Part shown: piece after piece, positions 5,561 to 63,966 of the stretch
How the letters are laid out: each line of letters opens with the position of its first letter
How positions within the stretch are numbered: position 1 is the stretch's first letter
DNA from: Chthonomonadaceae bacterium
GTDB lineage: Bacteria > Armatimonadota > Chthonomonadetes > Chthonomonadales > Chthonomonadaceae
Direction: 5' to 3'
Assembly (NCBI GenBank): GCA_035650735.1
Contig: DASRGZ010000096.1
Coordinates: forward strand, 23,526-87,525
DNA length: 64,000 nucleotides
Translations under genes and position numbers: made by a program
The notes under the pieces: model-generated
The model's database searches: none
The model's input: only the letters and a program-made list of their open reading frames with translations
What the model was told of the DNA's origin: nothing

Positions 5561-5714
5561 TCCGGGACAGGCTCCCCGGCGCAGCGTTAGCCTCGCGGGA
5601 GGCAATCGCCCCCGCCATCTGGATAAAGACCAGATTTTTAGACAGGATGAACAGGATTTACAGGATTAGACAAAGACAGAGAAGCAGGGCTTGCCCTTGT
5701 TTAGGAGGAGAACC

Positions 5715-6815: not shown

Positions 6816-7045
6816 TGGAGCATTTGGCGGCGTCTTTTCCGCCCATGCAGGTGGGCAAGGCTCTCTGCCTGCGTAGGCAGGCAGCGGGCCTGGCTAGGCG
6901 GAGATCGCCAGGCAGAGCCGCGAACCGTTGAGCGGCGTCCCTGGCAGTCGAGCGTGCGCAGTTCCGACCCTAGCAGAGCCTCACAGCGGCAGGGTTTAGC
7001 CTGCCGCCAAAAGATGGCGGATTTTCCGGCTGCGCCGCTTAAAGG

Positions 7046-7124
7046 GTAATCCCTCCCAACGGTGTGGACGTATCTCCTCAGTAGCAAGCTGCTTGAGATT
7101 GATCCACACGACTGGGAGTGTCTA
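7046..7124 (+). mobile_element. MITE-like repeat family 1, copy A (~79 bp), flanked by ~10-bp direct repeats CGCTTAAAGG
   Basis: Near-identical to segments at ~18051-18127, ~25305-25390 and ~43557-43645. Imperfect terminal inverted repeats GTAGACACTCCCAGCCGTGTG / CACACCGTTGGGAGGGATTAC. Confidence 0.6.
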
Positions 7125-7165
7125 CCGCTTAAAGGGCGTGCCCTGCTCTACTTGTCGGGGAAACT

Positions 7166-13329: not shown

Positions 13330-13600
13330 GTGATTTTGCCCGGCATTTCCTACAGCAAGATGGGAATTGCAGGCCATTCTGTTCTAGTCCTCTCCCCAGC
13401 AGACCTCACCCCCGGCCCCTCTCCTTCACAAGGAGAGGGGAGAGAAGAAGCCGGGGCACCCCCTTCCCTCCTAGGGAAGGGGGCCGGGGGGTTAGGTCAA
13501 AAGGAGAAGGGGGAGCAGAGAAGCCAGGGTTTGCCTCTGCCTGCGCAGGCAGGCAGCGGGCCGCAGGCCCCACAGCGGCAGGGGTCAGCCTGTCGTCACC
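13330..13600. repeat. GC-rich hairpin repeat cluster (REP/BIME-like)
   Basis: Palindromes CCTCTCC..GGAGAGG and CCCTTCCC..GGGAAGGG. Shares GGGAAGGGGGCCGGGGGGTTAGGT with 20790-20820 and 61780-61805, and GCAGGCAGGCAGCGGGCC / CACAGCGGCAGGG with 6880-6995. Confidence 0.5.
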
Positions 13601-15080
13601 AGAGCGTCACCTCATCCCAGTGCACCGGCTCGGCCCGCTCGTAATGCCGTCCGCGAGGGAGCGACACGCCGGCAAACGGGCCGAGGATAAGCGTAGGGCA
13701 GAACAAGAGCGCCACGGCGTCCGCCCGGTCTGGCGAGGGCAGGCCGCGCCGCCGCATCTCCTCCTTGCTCTCGATCTGAATCTGCCCGGCGGATGCGAAC
13801 TGGTAGCGCAGGCTCGCCAACTGCGCCGCCAGCGTCTCATCCTGGGGCAGCCGGATCTGCCCCGACCGGAACCGGTCCCGCAAGGCCCAGTAGGTCTGCG
13901 CGCGCAGATTCAAAAACTGATCGGCTTCCCGCGCACCCACCGGCCTCTCCCCAAACTGCACCGGCACTAGCCCGGCCACGCCCAGCTCCTCCAATCGATC
14001 CACCACGCCCGCCCCGATACCTACCGCGTCCACGGCGATGACCTCCGCGTGCTCCTCCTGCGCCAGCGCTGCAATGCGTCCGGCTACCTCCATCGTGCTC
14101 AGCCCGCGATACGTCGCCAGCCGCGTCACCGTATCGCCCTGCCGTACCGCCAGCACCGTCTCATCCGGGCCGAACCGCGCCACGTCCGCCGCCAGGATGC
14201 AGGCCGGATGAGGAAGAAAGGAAGAAGGAGGCAAAGACTTCTCGGTTGACTCCTTTCCCGCCATCGCCGCCTCGATCCAGGAGAGGGCGATCAGGCTGTC
14301 TGCTGCCGCTTCCGGGAACTCGCCCTGCACGCGGGCGCGAAACAGCCCGTTCGGGCGATACCGCCGCCCCTCCCAGGCAAACGTCTCCCGGTCATCTACG
14401 TTGGCCTCGGCTGTCCCCATCGGCTCGCACCAATCGGCAATCCGATCCGCCACCGCCTCCCGTGTCACCGCTCCCGGAATAACCGGAAACAGAAACGTTT
14501 CCCCGGCCACGTTCGGATGTGCCAGCGCCGAGAGGGTGAAGGTCTTCCAGCGCGGCGATTTGAACAGTTGGTAAAACCGACCGGCGGGAGATAGCGGGTT
14601 TGAGATAGCCAGCACCCGGTTATTGCGTCCTACGCAGACGCCCTCTATCGCGTCCCAGATCTCCTCCGGCACGCCGCACGCCTCGTCCAGCACGACCAGC
14701 AGGTTCTCCGCGTGGAAGCCCTGGAACCTGACAGGCTCGTCGGTGCTAAGGCCCATCGCAAAATGCCCATCCGCGACCTTCAGGCGCGTCTGCAATAGGC
14801 TGCCCTCCAGCCTGGGCCGGGAAGGGTCGGCCTCGGCCCGCGCCTGGACTCGGTGAAAGCGCCTGCGAATCTCCTCCCAGAGCAGCGACTCCACTTGCCT
14901 CCAGGTTGGCGCCGTCGTCAGTACAACGGCAGGCCGATGGCAGTAGAGAAACCACCGCCAATTCCTGTTCCCAACCTCTACGATGTCTCTCGCCGGAAAG
15001 AGTCCATTGATCCTCCCCCTCCAAAGAGGGGCTGCCTCCATAGCGCGTCTGGTTTCGCATCGTGCTAACTCCTCTGCCAT
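13596..15080 (-). CDS. Phage terminase large-subunit-like protein. Intact RNaseH-like nuclease domain; ATPase domain lacks a recognisable Walker A.
   Basis: Walker-B/motif III 'LLVVLDEACGV...RVLAISNP'. Nuclease block 'ILAADVARFGPDETVLAV...AVDAVGIGAGVVDRLEELG...SPDRADAVAL' is textbook terminase C-terminus. No other phage genes adjacent. Confidence 0.6.
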   Translation of the reverse strand: MAEELARCETRRAMEAAPLWRGRINGLFPARDIVEVGNRNWRWFLYCHRPAVVLTTAPTWRQVESLLWEEIRRRFHRVQARAEADPSRPRLEGSLLQTRLKVADGHFAMGLSTDEPVRFQGFHAENLLVVLDEACGVPEEIWDAIEGVCVGRNNRVLAISNPLSPAGRFYQLFKSPRWKTFTLSALAHPNVAGETFLFPVIPGAVTREAVADRIADWCEPMGTAEANVDDRETFAWEGRRYRPNGLFRARVQGEFPEAAADSLIALSWIEAAMAGKESTEKSLPPSSFLPHPACILAADVARFGPDETVLAVRQGDTVTRLATYRGLSTMEVAGRIAALAQEEHAEVIAVDAVGIGAGVVDRLEELGVAGLVPVQFGERPVGAREADQFLNLRAQTYWALRDRFRSGQIRLPQDETLAAQLASLRYQFASAGQIQIESKEEMRRRGLPSPDRADAVALLFCPTLILGPFAGVSLPRGRHYERAEPVHWDEVTLW

Positions 15081-16635: not shown

Positions 16636-17757
16636 TCATTCTTCCTCATACTCTACCGCCTTTTTCCACCAATCGAACTCGTCCGGGAAGCGGCGGCTGT
16701 TCTTATCGAACCACTCCATCATCTTCAGGGCGTCGTAGCCGAACTGGCTCTGGAACGTCTTCTCGAACTCCTCAAACGTCATGCCCATGCGGATAGCCAG
16801 AATATATTCCCGCGCGCCGATGTTATCACCCGGATTGGAGCGCAGAAGCTTGCGCAGCAACTCCAGCGCCGCGTCGGTGCGGCCCGCCTCCCATTCGGCC
16901 AGCGCCTTGTTGAGCAGCGTGCGGATGATGTGCCGGTTTTCCAGCCAGCCCCATTCCAGCGTCGGCGGCCAGTTGCCTTCGGCGTCCGTAATGCGCCTCA
17001 GCGCCCGCTCATAGGCCGTGTTGAGCAGTTGCTCCGCCTCCTCCTCCCGTCCCTGCTGCCGGAGCATGTCCCGCAGCATCAAATAGGAGTCATAAAAATC
17101 CGGGTCCCGCTCAATCAGTTTACGAACATCCCGTTCGAGAGCCGGACACGGCCTCTGCCGCTGGTAGCGCTCCGCCAGGTCATAGAAGCGGGACTGCACC
17201 GGCGACTCGTGCGCAACGAACTGCCCGCCCTCGACGACATCGCCCTCCGGATTGGACATCCGCAGCCCGCCGCCAAGCATCTGCTCCAACTGGCCCACCA
17301 TCTCGAAGGTAGGAGTGATCTGCTGTGCCGCCTGCTCCAGCAGCTCGAAGGTGGGGGCCATTCTCTCCTTCATCTGCTTGGTCATGAACTCGGTATTGAA
17401 GTAGTTGAGATTGAACATTTCGCGAATGGCTCCCGCTTTCTGGGAGGCGCTACCCGGAGCCACATGGAAATAGGCGGCGATGTCCGGTGCGCTCACATGC
17501 GGCTTAAAACGCTTATCAAACAGGAAGTTCATCGTGCCGAGCGCATGAATGATCCCGGTGGCCCATATCTCCGGGCGTCCGCGCAGAAAGGGCACGGAAC
17601 GCTGTTTGGCCATCCTATCTATGAGCTTCTTGCACAGCCGCTTGTAGTCCGCATTCAAATAGGCGTCGCAGAACCCGCCCGTTAATTCCAGAAGCTGCTG
17701 CTTCTTCTCGGTCACGGCATCCTGCCCATTGGCGCCGATATCGGCCTTTTTCGGCAT
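16636..17757 (-). CDS. Hypothetical protein with helical, TPR-like C-terminal half
   Basis: 402-aa ORF. Internal Met 'MPKKADIG' is a more plausible start than the track start. No recognisable catalytic motif. Confidence 0.45.
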   Translation of the reverse strand: MPKKADIGANGQDAVTEKKQQLLELTGGFCDAYLNADYKRLCKKLIDRMAKQRSVPFLRGRPEIWATGIIHALGTMNFLFDKRFKPHVSAPDIAAYFHVAPGSASQKAGAIREMFNLNYFNTEFMTKQMKERMAPTFELLEQAAQQITPTFEMVGQLEQMLGGGLRMSNPEGDVVEGGQFVAHESPVQSRFYDLAERYQRQRPCPALERDVRKLIERDPDFYDSYLMLRDMLRQQGREEEAEQLLNTAYERALRRITDAEGNWPPTLEWGWLENRHIIRTLLNKALAEWEAGRTDAALELLRKLLRSNPGDNIGAREYILAIRMGMTFEEFEKTFQSQFGYDALKMMEWFDKNSRRFPDEFDWWKKAVEYEEE

Positions 17758-17867
17758 CTCAGGCTCTCCTTTGGCGCAACTGCTGCGCGTCGCGCTTCCC
17801 TTCGCGTATGTCGCCCGACCGACTACGGCTACTGTGTACGGCATAAGCCTCTGAAACTCCTGCCTTC

Positions 17868-18180
17868 TGAAGGCAATTTAGACAGGATTAACGGGATTAA
17901 CCGGATTTCAACCACTCAATAAAACAGGGCTTCTCTGAATTTGGTAGATAACTCAAGTTGCTACCTTGCCTCTTCGAGAAGGCAAACGGTGATGCAAAAG
18001 CCGGTTTCCAGAGCGATTCTCTCTCAAACGTGTTCCTAGGTAGCAACTTGGGTTAGATGCTCCCAGCCGTGTGGATCAATCTCACGCAGCCTGCTGAGGA
18101 GATACGTCAACACCGTTGGGAGGGATTACCCTGAATTTGTGTAATCCTGTAAATCCTGCAAAATCCTGTTCATCCTGTTG
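17868..18180. mobile_element. Composite, nested repeat region: (AGGATTWA)n arms of repeat family 3 enclose family-2 and family-1 MITE-like copies
   Basis: Left arm 'agacaggattaacgggattaaccggattt' and right arm 'aatcctgtaaatcctgcaaaatcctgttcatcctg' are inverted. The interior holds the 115-bp element 17944-18058 and the family-1 copy ~18051-18127. The direct repeat CTGAATTTG flanks the inserted block. Confidence 0.55.
17944..18058. mobile_element. MITE-like repeat family 2, copy 1 (115 bp), 17-bp near-perfect terminal inverted repeats
   Basis: 100% identical to 57367-57481. Terminal inverted repeats AACTCAAGTTGCTACCT / AGGTAGCAACTTGGGTT, with TAGAT on both flanks. Internal hairpin TTGCCTCTTCGAGAAGGCAA. 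Confidence 0.55.
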
Positions 18181-18396
18181 AAGGATTGGCTTTTCCTCCG
18201 TGTCTCTAGTGCAGCGGGTGGTTCAAAAATCGCTGTCCTGGTTTGGAAAATCTAGGGTATACTATGGCGGCTGACGGCGTAAACACAGCCGTCGCTTTTC
18301 TTGCGGGCAGCGTTGACAATTGAATCGGGCGTCTGATACAATACCGCAACGTTGTCAGGGCGATCTGGCAATACCCTCTTTTGCGCAGGAGACTCG

Positions 18397-20526
18397 ATGC
18401 CCACCGGCCGCCAAGAACCAGCGCGTGTCCTTGCCCCACCAGTCAAAAATGGCGCTTTGAGCCTGGAGGATTCGCTTCAGTACCTCAAAGGCGTGGGGCC
18501 GCAGGCGGCGGCGCTGCTGGCGAAAATCGGCCTGGTCACCGTAGCCGATCTGCTGCGCCACATCCCCCGCCGCTGGGAGGATCGAACCAGGTTCCGGCGC
18601 GTGGCGGAGGTGCAGAGCGGGGAGCTCGTTACCGTCTGCGGGGTGGTGATCGCGGTCAATACGACCTACCCGAAGCCGCGCCTACAGATCACCAAAGCCC
18701 TTCTCGACGACACGGGCAGCGCGCTCACGCTCACCTGGTTCAATCAGCCCTACCTGGAGAAGACATTCAAGGGCCTGGCGGCGTCCCGCAGGCCGGTGGT
18801 CGTCTACGGGCAGGCCAGGCGCGTCGGCTGGTCGCTGGAGATACAGAACCCCGAATGGGAGGAACTGGGCGAGGACGGCGATACGCTCTCTACCAACCGC
18901 ATCGTGCCCGTCTACCCGGCTACCGAAGGCGTCCGCCAGGTACGGCTGCGGCGCATGGTGGACGCCGTGCTCCAGACCTACCTGCCGCTGGTGGAGGAGA
19001 CGCTGCCGCCGGAGGTGATCCTGCGTCACAGGCTGGTGGGCGCGCAGACGGCAGTGCGCAATATCCATTTCCCAGAGAGCTGGGAAGACCTACAGGCGGC
19101 GCGGCGGCGGCTGGTCTTTGAAGAGTTTTTTCTGCTGCAGACGCTCCTGGCGATCCGGCGGCGCGCTCACAGCCGCGATGTGCGCGGCATTCCCTTCGAA
19201 ATCTCACTGGATCGCCTGCGGGCCGATCTGGCCGAGATCGTGCCGTTTACCTTGACCGGGGCGCAGCAGCGGACCATCGCCGAGATCGCCGCCGATATGG
19301 GCAGCGGGCGCGTAATGAACCGCCTGCTCCAGGGCGACGTGGGCAGTGGCAAGACGATGGTGGCGCTGGCGGCGATGCTGATGGCCGTCGAGAACGGCTG
19401 CCAGGCGGCTCTGATGGCCCCCACCGAAATTCTGGCGCAGCAGCACGCCATCGTGCTGGGCCGCCTGCTCGAACCGCTCGGGCTGGCGGTGGAATTGGCG
19501 CTGGGCAGCCAGACGCAGAAGGAAAAGGCGAGCGTGCGCGACCGGCTTCTGAGCGGGCAGTCCCGGCTGGTCGTCGGCACGCACGCGCTGATCCAGGAGG
19601 GCCTGGAGTTCGCCCGGCTCGGTCTGGTCATCGTGGACGAGCAGCACCGGTTCGGCGTGCTCCAGCGGCAGGCCCTCCGCCAGAAGGGCGAGCGCCCGCA
19701 CGTCCTGGTGATGACGGCCACGCCCATCCCGCGCACCCTGACCCTGACCCTCTACGGCGACCTGGATGTCTCCGTGCTGGACGAACTGCCGCCGGGCCGC
19801 AAACCGATCACCACCCACTGGAAGACGCCGGATAAGCGCGCGCAGGTCTACGCCGCCGCGCAGCGCCTCTTGATGGAGGGCCGGCAGGTCTACGTTGTCT
19901 GCCCGCTGATCGAGGAGAGCGAGAAGCTCCAGGCCAAGAGCGCCACGCAATTGAGCGAGCACATCGCCAACGATGTCTTCCCGCAATACCGGGTGGGCCT
20001 GCTGCACGGCCAGATGAAGCCGGACGAGAAAGATGCGGTCATGGCCCGCTTCAAGGCTCACGAGCTGGACGTGCTGGTCTCCACCACGGTCATCGAGGTC
20101 GGCATTGACGTGCCCAACGCCTCGGTCATTGTCATCGAGGATGCGGACCGCTTCGGGCTGGCGCAACTGCATCAGTTGCGCGGGCGCGTCGGGCGCGGCC
20201 AGCACGCCTCGTTCTGCATCCTAATGGCCGATCCCAAGACTGAGGAGGGGCGGGCGCGCATGGAGGTAATGACGGCCACGACCGATGGCTTCAAGATCGC
20301 CGAAGAGGATCTGCGCCTGCGCGGACCCGGCGAGTTCTATGGCACCCGCCAGAGCGGTATGCCGGAACTCTACATCGCCGATATTATTCAGGATAGGGAG
20401 ATTTTGGCCGAGACGCGCGAGACCGCATTCCAGCTCGTCGAGGCCGACCCTAAGCTGTCCCGGCCCGAACATCAGCCGCTGCGCCGCGCGCTGGAACGGA
20501 TGCGGCACGGGTTGGAGTTGACCTAA
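18397..20526 (+). CDS. recG: ATP-dependent DNA helicase RecG
   Basis: Wedge domain followed by helicase motifs 'GDVGSGKT', 'DEQHRFG', 'MTATPIPRT' and 'QLRGRVGRG'. RBS AGGAG lies before the ATG at 18397. Confidence 0.9.
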   Translation: MPTGRQEPARVLAPPVKNGALSLEDSLQYLKGVGPQAAALLAKIGLVTVADLLRHIPRRWEDRTRFRRVAEVQSGELVTVCGVVIAVNTTYPKPRLQITKALLDDTGSALTLTWFNQPYLEKTFKGLAASRRPVVVYGQARRVGWSLEIQNPEWEELGEDGDTLSTNRIVPVYPATEGVRQVRLRRMVDAVLQTYLPLVEETLPPEVILRHRLVGAQTAVRNIHFPESWEDLQAARRRLVFEEFFLLQTLLAIRRRAHSRDVRGIPFEISLDRLRADLAEIVPFTLTGAQQRTIAEIAADMGSGRVMNRLLQGDVGSGKTMVALAAMLMAVENGCQAALMAPTEILAQQHAIVLGRLLEPLGLAVELALGSQTQKEKASVRDRLLSGQSRLVVGTHALIQEGLEFARLGLVIVDEQHRFGVLQRQALRQKGERPHVLVMTATPIPRTLTLTLYGDLDVSVLDELPPGRKPITTHWKTPDKRAQVYAAAQRLLMEGRQVYVVCPLIEESEKLQAKSATQLSEHIANDVFPQYRVGLLHGQMKPDEKDAVMARFKAHELDVLVSTTVIEVGIDVPNASVIVIEDADRFGLAQLHQLRGRVGRGQHASFCILMADPKTEEGRARMEVMTATTDGFKIAEEDLRLRGPGEFYGTRQSGMPELYIADIIQDREILAETRETAFQLVEADPKLSRPEHQPLRRALERMRHGLELT

Positions 20527-20823
20527 CCCCCCGGCCCCCTTCCCTAATACGTTCGCTACCGCTCACAGGGGTGGGGGTGACCCGGCTTCTCCTCTATCCT
20601 AGAATTGAGGAGGGGTAGCGGGGAAGGGGAGAACCCGGCTTCTGCTCTCCCTTCTCCCTTGCAGGGAGAAGGGACGGGATGAGGGGAGAACCCGGTTCCC
20701 GCTCCCCTCTTCTTGTGAAGGAGAGGGGTCGGGGTGAGGTCTATTGAGGGTGAGGGCCGCAACCATCTCAAGCCGGGTCCCTCCCTTCCCTACAAGGGAA
20801 GGGGGCCGGGGGGTTAGGTAAAA
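20527..20823. repeat. Tandem array of ~55-bp GC-rich hairpin repeats
   Basis: Repeated units GGAGAACCCGG(C)TTC.GCTC + hairpin (CCCTTCTCCC TTGCA GGGAGAAGGG; CCCCTCTTC TTGTGAA GGAGAGGGG). Shares ACGTTCGCTAC(C)GCTCACAGGG...GGGTGACCCGGCTTCTCCTC with 53722-53775. Confidence 0.5.
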
Positions 20824-20824
20824 C

Positions 20825-21328
20825 ATGGCACGCGCGCTAGTGCCGGGCAGCTTCGACCCGGTGACAAACGGACACCTGGACATCATCGAGCGGGCGGCGG
20901 CGATGTTTGAGGGGGTGATCGTGGCCGTGGCCCGTAACCCGGCCAAGACGCCCCTCTTTAGCGTCGAAGAGCGGCTGGAGATGCTCCGGGAGGTGTGCGC
21001 CCCGCTGCCCAATGTCCGGGTAGACGCCTTCGAGGGACTGCTGATCCAGTATGCCCTGGAGCAGGACGCTACGGTGATCGTCAAGGGGCTGCGAGCCGTC
21101 TCAGATTTTGAGTACGAGCTTCAGATGGCGCTGATGAATCGGCGCCTGAGCAGCGCTGTAGAAACCGTCTTCATGATGACTGGGGCGGAATACTCCTACC
21201 TCAGTTCCAGTATCGTCAAAGAGATCGCCCGCCTCGGCGGATCGGTAAAAGGACTGGTGCCAGACAGTGTTGGACAACGCCTACGACAACGACTCGGAAG
21301 TTCGGAGATCGGAAAAAGTGAACTCTGA
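20825..21328 (+). CDS. coaD: Pantetheine-phosphate adenylyltransferase
   Basis: 'GSFDPVTNGHLDIIERA' signature (T/H-x-G-H nucleotidyltransferase motif). Confidence 0.9.
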   Translation: MARALVPGSFDPVTNGHLDIIERAAAMFEGVIVAVARNPAKTPLFSVEERLEMLREVCAPLPNVRVDAFEGLLIQYALEQDATVIVKGLRAVSDFEYELQMALMNRRLSSAVETVFMMTGAEYSYLSSSIVKEIARLGGSVKGLVPDSVGQRLRQRLGSSEIGKSEL

Positions 21329-24228: not shown

Positions 24229-25284
24229 ATGGCCTCCAAACCGACGCCGCTTTCCGCCAAAGAGGAGAGCGCCTATGCCAGCCCGGTAAGCAGCGTCCTC
24301 CATGCCGGGATTTTTGGCCTGGGAATGTGCATTCCCGAACGGGTCCTCACCAACGACGAACTCTCTCAGAGCGTAGAGACCAGCGATGAATGGATCACGG
24401 CGCGCACCGGCATCCGTGAGCGGCGGGTCACCGATGCAGAGAGTGCCACTTCGGACCTGGCGGTTGTCGCCGCCGAGCGCGCGCTGGCAGATGCAGGCAT
24501 GGACGCCGGCGGCCTCGACCTCATCCTCTGCGCCACGACCTCCGGGGATTATATCTGGCCTGCCACCGCCTGCGTCATCCAGGATCGTATCGGCGCCAGG
24601 CGCGCGGCGGCCTTTGATCTGAGCGCAGCCTGCTCCGGGTTCTGCTATGCGCTGGCGACGGCAGATGGGTTTATCCGCAGCGGGGCCATGCAGCGTATCC
24701 TGGTCATCGGCGCGGATACGCTCTCCAAGCAGCTTGACTGGCAGGACCGCGCGACCTGTATTCTGTTTGGCGACGGCGCGGGCGCGGCAGTCCTGGCTCC
24801 CTGCGCGCCCGGCGAAGGTATTCTGGCTTCCTCGCTCGGTGCGGACGGCAGCGGGGTCGAGGCGGTCTGGATACCGGGCGGGGGCACGCGCGCTCCTCTC
24901 ACGCCGGAGACGCTGGAACAGAAGGCCAACTGCATTCGGATGAAGGGCAAGGAGGTCTATCGCTTCGCCGTTGAGGTCGTGCCGCAAGTGGTCACGGAGG
25001 CGCTCAAGCGCGCCTGCCTGCGCCCCTGCGATGTTAGCCTCCTCATCATGCACCAGGCCAATATCCGCATTATCCAGGCGGCGGCGGAACGCCTGGGCCT
25101 TCCGAACGAAAAGGTCTTTGTCAACGTAGACCGCTACGGAAATACCTCCGCCGCGTCCGTGCCCATCGCGCTGGCCGAAGCCGCGCAGCAGGGACGCCTG
25201 CGGTATGGCGATATCGTCGTGACGGTCGGGTTCGGCGCGGGCCTGACCTGGGGCGCCAACGTCATCCGCTGGAACAGAAGATAA
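24229..25284 (+). CDS. fabH: 3-oxoacyl-ACP synthase III
   Basis: Active-site Cys context 'AACSGFCYAL' and C-terminal His/Asn blocks. Gene order plsX-fabH-fabD-fabG-acpP-fabF. Confidence 0.9.
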   Translation: MASKPTPLSAKEESAYASPVSSVLHAGIFGLGMCIPERVLTNDELSQSVETSDEWITARTGIRERRVTDAESATSDLAVVAAERALADAGMDAGGLDLILCATTSGDYIWPATACVIQDRIGARRAAAFDLSAACSGFCYALATADGFIRSGAMQRILVIGADTLSKQLDWQDRATCILFGDGAGAAVLAPCAPGEGILASSLGADGSGVEAVWIPGGGTRAPLTPETLEQKANCIRMKGKEVYRFAVEVVPQVVTEALKRACLRPCDVSLLIMHQANIRIIQAAAERLGLPNEKVFVNVDRYGNTSAASVPIALAEAAQQGRLRYGDIVVTVGFGAGLTWGANVIRWNRR

Positions 25285-25304
25285 GCATCCAGAAAATGAT
25301 AACC

Positions 25305-25390
25305 GGGTAATCCCTCCCAATGGTGTTGACGTATCTCCTCAGCAGCAGGCTGCGTGAGATTGATCCACACGGCTGGGAGTGTCTACCTGA
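25305..25390 (+). mobile_element. MITE-like repeat family 1, copy C, flanked by direct repeat TGATAACCG
   Basis: GGTAATCCCTCCCAATGGTGTTGACGTATCTCCTCAGCAGCAGGCTGCGTGAGATTGATCCACACGGCTGGGAGTGTCTAC, with 9-bp flanking duplications. Confidence 0.6.
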
Positions 25391-25621
25391 TAACCGTTAC
25401 TCTCAAAACAATGCCCTACCGGGCGACCGCAGATCTGGATAAGCATCCAGAAAATGATAACCGTTACCTTTCCGGGAGTGGGCATCATAGGCGTACCCTG
25501 GTATATACTGGCCCTGGCCCTGTTGTTGCTGTTGAGCGGGATCGGGGCGATTGCATGGCTCCTTCGCGCCGTGCGCGGCTAGCTGCCTGTCGGCGGTAAG
25601 CATTGAGGAAGTGAGCGGGAA

Positions 25622-26584: not shown

Positions 26585-26589
26585 AGAAC

Positions 26590-26731
26590 CTTCCAACAGG
26601 ATTTTGCAGGATTTGCAGGATTAAGACCAAAGACTAAAGCCTTCCCGTCCACTAAGTTAAGAGACATAGGAACTTGGTTGGGTAGGTAGGTTTTAGAAAT
26701 CCTGTTTAATCCTGCATAATCCTGTTGGAAT
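26590..26731. mobile_element. Repeat family 3 element (~140 bp) with 11-bp perfect terminal inverted repeats CCAACAGGATT/AATCCTGTTGG and tandem (AGGATTWR) 8-9-mer arms
   Basis: 'caggattttgcaggatttgcaggattaag' ... 'aatcctgtttaatcctgcataatcctgttgg'. Related arms occur at 5640-5680, 17873-17913 and 18141-18178. Confidence 0.5.
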
Positions 26732-26774
26732 CTTTCGTAGCGGGTGGTGGATTCGTCTGGAAAGGAACGGGTGT

Positions 26775-43556: not shown

Positions 43557-43645
43557 GATAGGTAGACACTCCCAGCCGTGTGGATCAATCTCACGCAGCC
43601 TGCTGCTGAGGAGATACGTCAACACCGTTGGGAGGGATTACCTGT
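43557..43645 (-). mobile_element. MITE-like repeat family 1, copy D, flanked by 9-bp target-site duplication TGTTGATAG
   Basis: GTAGACACTCCCAGCCGTGTGGATCAATCTCACGCAGCCTGCTGCTGAGGAGATACGTCAACACCGTTGGGAGGGATTACC between perfect direct repeats. Confidence 0.6.
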
Positions 43646-53639: not shown

Positions 53640-53900
53640 TCTCCCTTCTCCTTATTAACCTAATCCCCCGGCCCCTACTGCAAGGGTAGGGCCTGCTATG
53701 GTTGGGCCCTCCGCCTAACGACCCTGCTACGTTCGCTACGCTCACAGGGAAGAGGGTGACCCGGCTTCTCCTCTCCCCTCTCCCGCAGCGTGGGAGAGGG
53801 GGCAGGGGGTGAGAGCGACTCTACACCCTACCCCCTACACCCTATCCCCTACACCCTGCGCGAGGGGCCGGGGGGAGGGCCGCTCCCTTCAAGAACAGAA
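53640..53900. repeat. GC-rich hairpin repeat cluster
   Basis: 'CCCTCTCCCGCAGCGTGGGAGAGGG' palindrome. Shares a block with 20540-20595 and 'CGCGAGGGGCCGGGGGG' with 61785. Confidence 0.5.
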
Positions 53901-55786: not shown

Positions 55787-57054
55787 CTAGAAAAGATTGC
55801 CTGCCGTGTCGAACGCCATCGGGGCAGGCGGCTCGAGGATGCTGAGCCTGGGGTTCTGCGAGACCTCCTCCAGTAGGGCCTCGGAAACCCAGAAGGTATC
55901 GAGCGCATCCGTGTTGCGGATGCGGCACAGGCGCGGCCTGTCTCCGGCCAGAGACGAATAGAGCGCTACCTCAATCGCGTCGCGGTCCGAGGGCAGCGCC
56001 AGCGGCAGCGGCCCTTCGCGCGTATTGCCGCCCGGCTCCTGAGCGGTCAGGAGATTGACATAGGTCACGGCGGGGTCGTAGGTAGCGGCGGCGCGCTGCG
56101 TGGTGAAATCGGCCATGCCCATGCCGATGCCGTTGCCCAGCGAGGGCGGCGTGATCGAGAGGGCGACGATCCGATGGTAGTTGGGGACATGCGGGCGCGT
56201 GGGAACGGCGTGCCAGCGGCCCACCACGTTCGGGTCCATCCCGGCGCCGGAGATGTCTTTGCCGATCTCGTCTAATACGAGGACATCTAGCTGCTGAAAC
56301 GGCAGCGTCGCCAGGTAGCCTTTGGCGATGGCGAGCAGCCGCATGTCCGCCTCCAGGAACGCATCGTAATGGGGCGGCACGGCTTCCACGACCACCGGCT
56401 GCCGGTAGCCGTTTTCCACCACCGCCACGCCATAGAGGACCTTCGTCCGGGCTAAAATCAGGCGCGGCACGGCCCGCACCGACTCCCACAGGCCGTGGTT
56501 GTGCGCCTCCTGCGCGCCGCGCTGCTTGCCCAGGCCGATAGTCGTCATCTTCAGTAGCCCGGAGGCCAGCTCCCCGATGGACTCGGGATGGGTCTTGACG
56601 CGCCCCAAAACAAGGATTCCATCTGCCTCCCAGGCAATTTTATTACATGCGCTTCCGCGCCGTTTTCCGCCTTGCCCAGCGGCACAGTCTCCATCGTCGC
56701 CCGGATAGGCGCACCTACCGACTGCTCGGTCACCCCCAGCCGATGCAGGATCTCGGTCTGCCCCTCCGGGACGGCGCCGCCGTGGCTGCCCATCGCCGGG
56801 ATCAGGAAGGGCTGGCCACCCGCCTCCTTCACGGCATCCACAATGCCGGAGAGCAGCTCGATAAAGCCGCCCATGCCCCGGCTTCCGGCGGTGATGGCGA
56901 TCCGATTTCCGGGCTTGACCTTATCGCGCAGCCCGGCATCCAGGAGGCGTTGGCGGACCTCCTGGCGCGGATCGGCAATATGATCTGTCGGCAAGTAGTG
57001 CTTGACACGGGCGACGTTCGGGGCCGGACGTCGGGGAAATGCCATCGGATGCAT
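55787..57054 (-). pseudogene. LarA-like (lactate racemase / DUF2088 family) gene interrupted by a frameshift near 56600
   Basis: Two overlapping ORFs (56551-57054 and 55787-56608) in different frames together span a LarA-like domain. The junction lies at a CCCCAAAACAAGG homopolymer-rich site. Confidence 0.45.
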
Positions 57055-57366
57055 CTGTCCTTACCTCTATTGGCTCAGGCGGTAGCGCTCAAGGAAACCG
57101 TGGTTTAAGCCGGAACTTTCATAAAATGGGGCCGTCAGGCGCAGAGCACGTAAATCAGGCAGGCGAATACCGCGCATCAAGGGACAGACGGAAACGCAAC
57201 GGCAGGATGTTCCTCAATTTCCGGCCCGGAAGGGAAGCCTTACCGTTATACGTGGTCCGTGGCCGCAATTTGCTGCCCGGAAGGGGAGGGAACCTTTGCC
57301 TGACCTGGGGGGTCATATCTCTATTATTCTGGAGTTGCACACTAGATCCACAAGAGTGTAGATAAC

Positions 57367-57481
57367 TCAAGTTGCTACCTTGCCTCTTCGAGAAGGCAAA
57401 CGGTGATGCAAAAGCCGGTTTCCAGAGCGATTCTCTCTCAAACGTGTTCCTAGGTAGCAACTTGGGTTAGATACGGGCAGG
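57367..57481. mobile_element. MITE-like repeat family 2, copy 2 (identical to 17944-18058)
   Basis: 115/115 identity by eye. TAGAT on both flanks. Confidence 0.55.
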
Positions 57482-61753: not shown

Positions 61754-61829
61754 TCCCCGGATCTGTAAGACCTCACCCCCTGCGCGAGGGGCCGGGGGGT
61801 TAGGTAAGACCCAGGAGGCAATTACACGT

Positions 61830-63135: not shown

Positions 63136-63198
63136 CACTCACGTCCCTTGCCTTAAGGCGTCACAAAGTAGAAGGCCAGGCATCCTTCCTCCTTCATC

Positions 63199-63966
63199 TT
63201 AAGGCGTCACAAAGTAGAAGGCCAGGGCCAGCAGCGCATAAACGGCCAGCAGGAGCACGCCCTCGAACCAGGTGGTTTCTCCATCCTGGGTTATGGAGTT
63301 GACGGCGAAAGCGACCCCCGCCACCGCGATCAACTCCAGCGGATTGTGGAAAACGAGGTTCATCGGGCGGTGCAGGAAGCGTGAAAAGAGCACCAGCAGC
63401 GGAGCGACCAGCAGCGCCACCTGGATCGAGGAGCCGACCGTAATGCTGACGGCCATGCCCATCCGATTCTGGCGCGCGAAGTAGACCGCCGAGACGTACT
63501 CGGCGGCATTGCCGATGACCGCCAGCACGATCACGCCCAGGAAAAACGGCGTCAGGCCCAGGCGGCTGGCCGTCGCTTCCAGCGCCCCGGAAACAAGCTC
63601 GGCTTCCATAGCCGTCAGGGCCGTTCCCGCGAACAGGACGCCCAGCGAACGCCAGTACGGCCAGGCCGTCCCTTCCGCCGCCTCCGCGTCAGCGAACACA
63701 TCCCGATGGGTGGTCAGCGTATAGGCCAGATTGGCGATATAGACCAGGATCAGCACCACGGAGACGCCCAGGCTGAGCCGCTCATCCAGCGGCTCGGGAT
63801 CACGCATGGCATACAGGCTGCGTTCCGCGTGGTCAAAAAGCGCCGGCAGCAGCAGAGCGATAACCGCCAGAATTAACAGACTCCCCAGCATCCCCGCCCG
63901 CTCCCGCCGGAAGGTCTGTTTCTCGCGCCCCCAACAGCCCACGACAACAGACAGCCCCAGCCCCAA
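63199..63966 (-). CDS. Ca2+/H+ (CaCA/CAX family) antiporter, partial (N-terminus beyond window end)
   Basis: 'GNAAEY' alpha-repeat signature and polytopic hydrophobic profile. Confidence 0.75.

Follow-up and report, generated by a model that had tools for sequence, protein, structure and literature searches.

The DNA analysed here, a 64-kb stretch of a Chthonomonadaceae genome with a G+C content of 63% (the window), contains a spacer of about 640 bp between a DUF6398/TPR gene (minus strand, probable start at 17757) and recG (ATG at 18397). This spacer raises three questions: which elements fill it, in which order they arrived, and whether they contribute to the control of recG. Our analysis revealed a three-layer nest of non-coding repeats, named families 1, 2 and 3, with family 2 inside family 1 and family 1 inside family 3 (Table 1). 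Very probably, this is a stack of non-autonomous transposable elements without coding capacity that is most likely neutral for the host. The nest sequence was recovered from four independent assemblies with 99.96-100% identity and is therefore no assembly artefact. A scan of JGI metagenomes with the family-1 pattern yielded 95 loci (830 kb, 62% G+C) from three metagenomes of soil type.

Table 1. Features of the recG spacer and other copies of the three repeat families (positions are those of the window unless a locus is named).
Feature	Position	Strand	Remarks
Family-3 foldback, whole interrupted element	17876-18185		Split by family 1
Family 3, left part	17876-17942	+	Three units with a 9-bp period, then the central spacer as far as the site of family-1 insertion
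Family-3 left units ACAGGATTA ACGGGATTA ACCGGATT	17883-17907		Array detection
Family-1 target-site duplication, copy 1, CTGAATTT	17935-17942		8 bp
Family 1, whole, interrupted	17943-18130		Flanked by the 8-bp duplication CTGAATTT
Family 1, first 8 bp, GGTAGATA	17943-17950	+	Cut off from the remainder by family 2
Family-2 duplication, copy 1, TAGATA	17945-17950		Within the first 8 bp of family 1
Family-2 MITE	17951-18053	+	103 bp, ends AC...GT; IS982-type TIRs 17951-17966 / 18038-18053
Family-2 duplication, copy 2, TAGATG	18054-18059		Doubles as family-1 positions 3-8 (consensus TAGACA)
Family 1, remainder	18060-18130	+	Ends in ...GGGAGGGATTACC
Family-1 target-site duplication, copy 2, CTGAATTT	18131-18138		
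Family 3, right arm	18139-18185	+	Four units; ends in ...TGTTGAAGG
Family-3 right units TAATCCTGT AAATCCTGC AAAATCCTGT TCATCCTGT	18143-18177		Array detection
Flanking repeat motif TTTTCCTCCGTGTCTCTAGTGCAGCGGGTGGTT	18187-18223	+	Goes with the family-3 right arm at other loci
recG leader	18253-18396	+	Outside the nest; conserved within the lineage
recG leader element GGGTATACTAT	within 18253-18396		Also in relatives
Hairpin and T-run	18269-18302		Terminator-like
recG promoter TTGACA-18-TACAAT	18313-18342		11/12 match, extended -10
Second family-2 copy	57359-57473	+	Core 57365-57467; perfect TAGATA duplication at 57359-57364 and 57468-57473
Family-1 copy	43561-43642	+	Identical to the family consensus
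Family-1 copy between fabH and fabD	25306-25387	-	Relative L216 has no spacer there
Family-1 copy	7045-7126	-	5 differences from the consensus
Family 3, complete, uninterrupted, between fabD and fabG	26588-26732	+	Long subfamily
Family-3 half copy	5637-5692	+	One arm and part of the centre
Full-length element with the TIR 18-mer, Calidithermus	L005 3490-4388		

The inverted family-3 arms around the inserts, recognised in an earlier note on this locus, were recovered as two (ACAGGATNN)3-4 arrays in opposite orientation. Family 1, which the earlier note had described as abutting family 2, instead encloses it, family 2 being situated 8 bp from its left end. The direct repeat CTGAATTTG reported around the inserted block is indeed present (17935-17943 and 18131-18139), but the duplication proper is the 8-bp CTGAATTT, the ninth base, G, being the first base of family 1. 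The reported alteration of the family-1 end at the family-2 junction was also found: the end reads TAGATGCTCCC, as against TAGACACTCCC in the three other copies in the window and in 105 of 115 family-1 ends altogether. For family 2, near-perfect terminal inverted repeats (TIRs) and a flanking duplication were correctly noticed; the TIRs are 18 nt long with one mismatch (17949-17966 / 18038-18055), and the duplication extends from the 5-bp TAGAT to 6 bp (TAGATA and TAGATG at recG). The two family-2 copies of the window match, as claimed, at 115/115 positions; this identity tract (17944-18058 at recG) comprises the 103-bp core, 7 bp on its left and 5 bp on its right. The tract of the second copy spans 57358-57472, 9 bp lower than the interval 57367-57481 given previously.

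The order of insertions, expected earlier to be reconstructable, runs from family 3 through family 1 to family 2, as follows from stepwise removal of the inserts. Removal of 17951-18059 (family 2 and one duplication) leaves a 79-bp family 1, equal to the 82-bp consensus minus CTG, with CTGAATTT on both sides. Subsequent removal of family 1 with one duplication leaves a family 3 whose alignment with the paralogues L208 and L210 passes through the insertion point without a break. The divergence agrees with this order, being 0% for family 2 and about 2% for family 1, whereas family 3 is the least conserved, with roughly 84-94% identity in BLAST matches between its copies. The history of the spacer would thus have begun with a family-3 foldback of roughly 110 bp between the DUF6398/TPR gene and recG; a family-1 MITE would then have entered its central spacer, duplicating CTGAATTT, and a family-2 MITE would have entered family 1, 8 bp inside the left end, duplicating a TA-GA-TR hexamer. 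Comparison with relatives, suggested in the earlier note, revealed that all three repeats are absent at 86% RecG identity; these genomes demonstrate the absence of the repeats and not a precise empty site, because they have diverged too far and their upstream regions differ. No orthologous empty site was found in the JGI loci, which contain no recG or DUF6398 homologues and do not overlap the window.

Similar associations recur elsewhere. In L137/L189 and L198, family 2 is located at or beside the terminus of a family-1 copy; L172/L200 have it at a family-1-like end of 12 nt, and L171 has it beside family 3. Family 1 occurs within family-3 arms in L124, L137, and L141. Independent three-family nests within about 300 bp were observed at L198 6398-6777, where the family-2 copy is a 126-bp variant, and at L137 3924-4245 (the same as L189 10206-10527). 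Nesting may recur because TA-rich targets are rare at 63% G+C and clustered in intergenic repeats, among them the family-1 termini (GGTA/TACC) and the TTAA-rich arms of family 3.

The junction between families 1 and 2 is anomalous in one respect. The family-1 target hexamer at the nest is TAGATA on one side and TAGATG on the other, the consensus being TAGACA, and this variant occurs in no other copy; the family-2 duplication at the recG site is imperfect, and two point changes within 6 bp are needed. The most economical account would be a C-to-T change that first made the TA-GA-TA target, followed by a later change in the right copy; two pre-insertion changes explain the hexamer equally well. 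Gene conversion or recombination between the window copies, rather than two independent transpositions, could also have produced their shared flanks (G+TAGATA ... TAGAT) and would at the same time account for the altered family-1 end, given that the identity tract runs past the core on both sides and that the altered hexamer, unique among family-1 copies, matches the duplication at 57.4 kb in 5-6 of 6 bases. However, TAGATA is only one of 16 TA-NN-TA targets and is found again at an unrelated JGI site (L147/L203), which makes its sharing unremarkable; conversion would leave TAGATA, not TAGATG, on the right; and the insertion had to exist beforehand anyway. We consider conversion improbable and retain successive transposition as the explanation of the nest.

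Family 2, which has no coding capacity, was found at 18 flank-distinct sites in the window and the JGI loci, about 16 of them outside the window. The earlier note had considered an element confined to its two window sites as an argument against mobility; instead, the further sites carry their own, differing duplications and mostly identical cores. The 103/103 identical core is present at 15 of the 18 sites, 13 of these in JGI loci, and transposition was therefore recent, as had been proposed. Most duplications have 6 bp and follow the pattern TA-NN-TA, while one has 7 bp and one 8 bp; they include TATCTA, TACCTA, TAGCTA, TAAATA, TAATTA, TATGTA, TAGGTA, TAAGTA, and TATTGA. The last of these stands on both sides of the insertion in L204; hence the flanking TA belongs to the target, and the element itself is AC...GT, 103 bp. 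Boundary models that place the flanking TA inside the element (2- or 4-bp duplication) are contradicted by the same insertion, and they require no fewer changes at the family-1 junction. Both window copies had been assigned to divergent promoter regions. All 18 sites are indeed intergenic, but their gene contexts are tandem, divergent, and other. At 57.4 kb, the PRTase gene named as a neighbour was confirmed, whereas the 'LarA-like' assignment was not, as there is no Pfam match. The two overlapping ORFs to the left of this copy (55787-57054, minus strand) have no Pfam match at E <= 0.001.

The relatives of family 2 were sought by scanning its TIR 18-mer, TAACYCAAGTTGCTACCT, against one genome per GTDB species. 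The 18-mer occurs at at least 115 loci, while about 35 chance matches across the whole collection were estimated from its size. The hosts among the matches listed are Poribacteria, cyanobacteria, Armatimonadota, Chloroflexota, Deinococcota, Desulfobacterota, Bacteroidota, Chlamydiota, and others. In at least 68 distinct elements the 18-mer is paired with an inverted partner; among the matches listed, 14 such elements are 850-1200 bp long and 50 are shorter than 500 bp and have unrelated interiors. The long elements contain a single ORF of about 270-290 aa. In two full-length elements tested, from Chthonomonadaceae (L016) and Calidithermus (L005), the ORF matches the NCBIfam model NF033520, 'IS982 family transposase', at 171 and 148 bits, respectively (cut-off 130 bits), and both ORFs also match Pfam DDE_Tnp_1_3. 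The former element (L016 4594-5546), from another Chthonomonadaceae MAG, is 953 bp long and intact, and its TIRs are perfect. The transposases of the 18-mer elements are only 36-55% identical to each other, even though every element had been selected because it contains the exact 18-mer at least once. The 18-mer is identical over at least 8 phyla, and dozens of MITEs with unrelated interiors share these ends (L005-L119).

Duplications in the GTDB set, among the matches listed, are 5-9 bp long, and TA stands at both ends of 37 out of 43; the target of the 18-mer elements in these loci is TA-N(1-5)-TA. According to the ISfinder description, members of the IS982 family make variable duplications of 3-9 bp and have AC termini, and family 2, with 6-8 bp duplications and AC...GT ends, fits this description. 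To judge from its sequence, family 2 is a derivative of IS982-family insertion sequences. By analogy with the behaviour of the family, a full-length IS982 relative would provide, in trans, a DDE transposase that recognises the 16-18-bp TIRs and makes a staggered cut at TA-N(2-3)-TA, and gap repair would then yield the 6-bp duplication. A tBLASTn search with IS982 transposases detected no autonomous copy within the 64-kb window, and only one C-terminal fragment, frameshifted, in the window and the JGI loci together. This fragment, an IS982-family C-terminus with a right TIR (AGGTGGCAACTTGAGTTA), is found at L128 7540-7765 and L188 1-120; its reading frame shifts just ahead of the motif LHAVTPAGFELK, and the IS is cut off by the end of the contig or locus. 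The fragment belongs to the JGI organism that bears identical family-2 copies.

Family 2 shares with MITE derivatives of IS982 the TIRs of full-length elements encoding NF033520 transposases, AC...GT ends, and a 6-bp duplication that falls within the 5-9 bp measured here; like them, it is multi-copy, lacks an ORF, and presumably moves by means of a transposase supplied in trans. An IS982-derived MITE is already known, MITECca01 from ISCca4 of Cardinium (PMC9769881). Family 2 differs from it in length (103 bp versus about 240 bp) and in host (Chthonomonadaceae), and its interior has no recognisable likeness to the IS ends seen here. Among short bacterial MITEs, MITEAba12 has been described (PMC6382973). 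The elements of the nest resemble it, as well as Correia/NEMIS, ERIC, and RUP, in being about 80-150 bp long, intergenic and hairpin-forming, with TIRs, target duplications, and many near-identical copies, but have no sequence relationship to them. Some of these families have documented promoter, terminator or RNase-site functions, none of which is evidenced here.

Family 1 comprises about 94 distinct copies, which on average show 1.4 differences from the consensus per 82 bp. With few exceptions their length is exactly 82 bp (GGTAGAC...GGGATTACC); the duplications are exactly 8 bp in 82 of 112 cases and extended by chance to 9 bp in 9 of 112. The copies are overwhelmingly intergenic (102/104) and show no bias in orientation relative to the neighbouring genes (11 versus 12). 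The nest copy (18054-18130) matches the three other window copies at 91-95%. One of the latter is situated in the 338-bp fabH-fabD spacer, which is lineage-specific, because the two genes overlap in L216, from the fabD start to the fabH stop. This copy, together with about 50 bp of further sequence, is bracketed by a perfect direct repeat of 26 nt, GATAAGCATCCAGAAAATGATAACCG (25280-25305 and 25438-25463). In the neighbouring fabD-fabG spacer, L216 carries other inverted-repeat elements (13495-13876; AAATTTTTGGCTCATGTAGCC... and a C-rich/G-rich pair), whereas the window has family 3 there, that is, the same 'safe havens' hold different MITEs in different lineages.

In a search for a parent of family 1, no long element with its ends, no unpaired end and no IS1-type transposase was found in the approximately 1.8 Mb covered. 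Unpaired or distant family-1-like ends, considered as traces of a parent, turned out to be MITE copies or a 12-nt chance fragment beside a lipoprotein-like ORF. The family-1 ends, GGTAATCCCTCCCAAC / GGTAGACACTCCCAGC, resemble the right inverted repeat of IS1, GGTAATGACTCCAAC (verified in E. coli), with about 13 of 16 terminal bases alike, a likeness that was noticed post hoc and is accompanied by no IS1-type element with these ends in the sequence searched. The 8-bp duplication of family 1 is near that of IS1, 8-9 bp; the IS1 family is a candidate parent type.

Family 3 is a foldback of about 100-150 bp with inverted arms of about 35-45 bp and a conserved centre. The arms consist of 3-4 phased ACAGGAT units with a 9-10-bp period; arrays of at least three such units arise by chance 0.005 times per shuffled window, and 15 paired and 6 solo arrays were found. 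The arms fade gradually into the flanks, and no duplication can be read. A search for a parent yielded neither arm pairs separated by more than 500 bp nor a long element bounded by arms of this type. It is the multi-copy, dispersed distribution of family 3 that suggests its mobility. Repeated transposase-binding units are known in the ends of the IS21 family, Tn7, and Mu; the phased heptamer arrays of family 3 look as expected for multiple protein-binding sites, but no associated transposase, defined ends or duplication was found.

BLAST of the nest against 72,556 plasmids revealed only a family-3-like array in Thiodictyon pTs485, with no annotated IS. This plasmid of Thiodictyon syntrophicum, a gammaproteobacterial host, is about 290.5 kb in size and carries the foldback TAGACAGGATTAACAGGAT...ATCCTGTTAATCCTGTCTA (L215 1433-1545). 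Arrays of like build with other heptamers were observed, CACGGAT in L038, L043, L112, and L180, and TGAGTT in L064 (5620-5693). The motif YTCTAGCGCAGCGGGTGGTT (window 18204-18223) lies beside the family-3 right arm in 8 of its 11 occurrences, and the repeat landscape therefore passes the right boundary drawn in the earlier note. In the form (TTTTCCTCYGTGT...)YTCTAGCGCAGCGGGTGGTT, as at 18187-18223, it is usually located just outside the right arm. The motif is also present in L136, L152, L153, L171, L178, L198, L204, L210, and L213; in L153 and L210 it stops about 8-10 nt ahead of an ATG start.

Taken jointly, these repeats could be read as two more general phenomena: family 3 with YTCTAGCGCAGCGGGTGGTT as an undescribed cross-phylum class of foldbacks serving as protein-bound landing pads for MITEs, and the IS982-type 18-mer as an end sequence that repeatedly captures unrelated DNA. 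The former would unite the ACAGGAT heptamers of the window and the Thiodictyon plasmid with CACGGAT in Anaerolineae, Abditibacteriaceae, and JGI loci, and TGAGTT in a Chloroflexota MAG; on the latter, the 18-mer, constant base for base in at least 8 phyla despite transposases of only 36-55% identity, would have given rise to new MITE families time and again. We regard this combined reading as speculative and rather unlikely.

Does the nest, then, bear on recG? The recG promoter is more than 250 bp downstream of family 2, past the terminator-like hairpin. The whole leader (18253-18396) is kept in two relatives at 86% RecG identity, both of which lack the three repeats and one of which carries a different upstream gene. 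The nest therefore sits ahead of this conserved recG control region and is insulated from it. The orthologous leaders are found at L216 5760-6000 and L217 150-305, and the sequence of the hairpin stem differs in L216. There the hairpin comes after a co-directional DeoR-family gene and may therefore be a retained terminator. On this sequence evidence, the nest is most likely functionally neutral, and its position upstream of the conserved recG promoter is most likely why it persists.

The earlier note raised a different possibility, in which family 2 provides regulatory signals or a small RNA. We find it quite improbable that the element encodes a small RNA, or that it acts on the adjacent genes as a movable control module, for example a promoter, an operator or a hairpin in the 5' UTR, be it by origin or through later co-option. 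It does fold into a stable hairpin (-43.8 kcal/mol, z = -4.7, plus strand), but the TIRs by themselves account for this, and the opposite strand is nearly as stable (z = -4.0). The hairpin energies of all three families are due to their inverted repeats and are similar on both strands (z = -4.8/-3.4 for family 1 and -9.8/-7.2 for family 3). Nor can covariation support a selected structure, since the copies are 100% identical. Rfam gave 0 matches in the whole window at gathering thresholds and, at the permissive E <= 10, only two chance-level matches (E about 5) in 17760-18400, with none to family 2; no sigma-70-like promoter or terminator was found inside family 2. Both window copies lie in the same orientation upstream of plus-strand genes, but at sites between tandem genes the orientation is mixed (6 same, 4 opposite), with no clear bias. 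At recG, the conserved promoter and the terminator-like hairpin separate family 2 from the gene.

An effect is conceivable at 57.4 kb, where family 2 is situated between a weak promoter-like site (57300-57327), the sole one at this locus, and the PRTase gene; it could be part of the PRTase 5' UTR and may influence this gene. IS982-family ISs can supply fusion or outward promoters (PMC9330008), but nothing in the present analysis points to promoter supply by the 103-bp family 2. The nest may still have some regulatory side effect. The remaining alternative, a single duplication of a conserved cis-element or else a chimera of repeats made in assembly, is compatible with only two family-2 copies in the window and with metagenome assembly data, but can practically be dismissed in view of about 16 more family-2 and about 90 more family-1 sites with site-specific duplications and of the identical nest in four independent assemblies. 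The reading as a neutral nest of mobile elements is thus the one we follow.

Several other repeats were noticed in the window: a hairpin repeat containing GGGGCCGGGGGGTTAGGT (13448-13510, 20770-20832, and 61788-61818), CGCTCACAGGG...GACCCGGCTTCTCCTCT repeats just downstream of recG (20560-20707) and at 53739-53779, and a perfect tandem 29-mer with copies spaced 46 bp apart (63152-63226).

The nested elements are ordinary selfish DNA, and the finding points to no new biology at recG itself. Its interest is in the elements: the recG spacer of this Chthonomonadaceae bacterium provides a clean, fully reconstructable case of a MITE within a MITE within a repeat in the poorly studied Armatimonadota. 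Family 2 is assigned to the IS982 family, the TA-N(2-3)-TA target and AC...GT ends of that group are set from dozens of insertions, and identical family-2 copies at about 15 sites indicate a very recent burst. Such repeats account for inflated intergenic spacers and assembly breaks in MAGs, and could mark strains.
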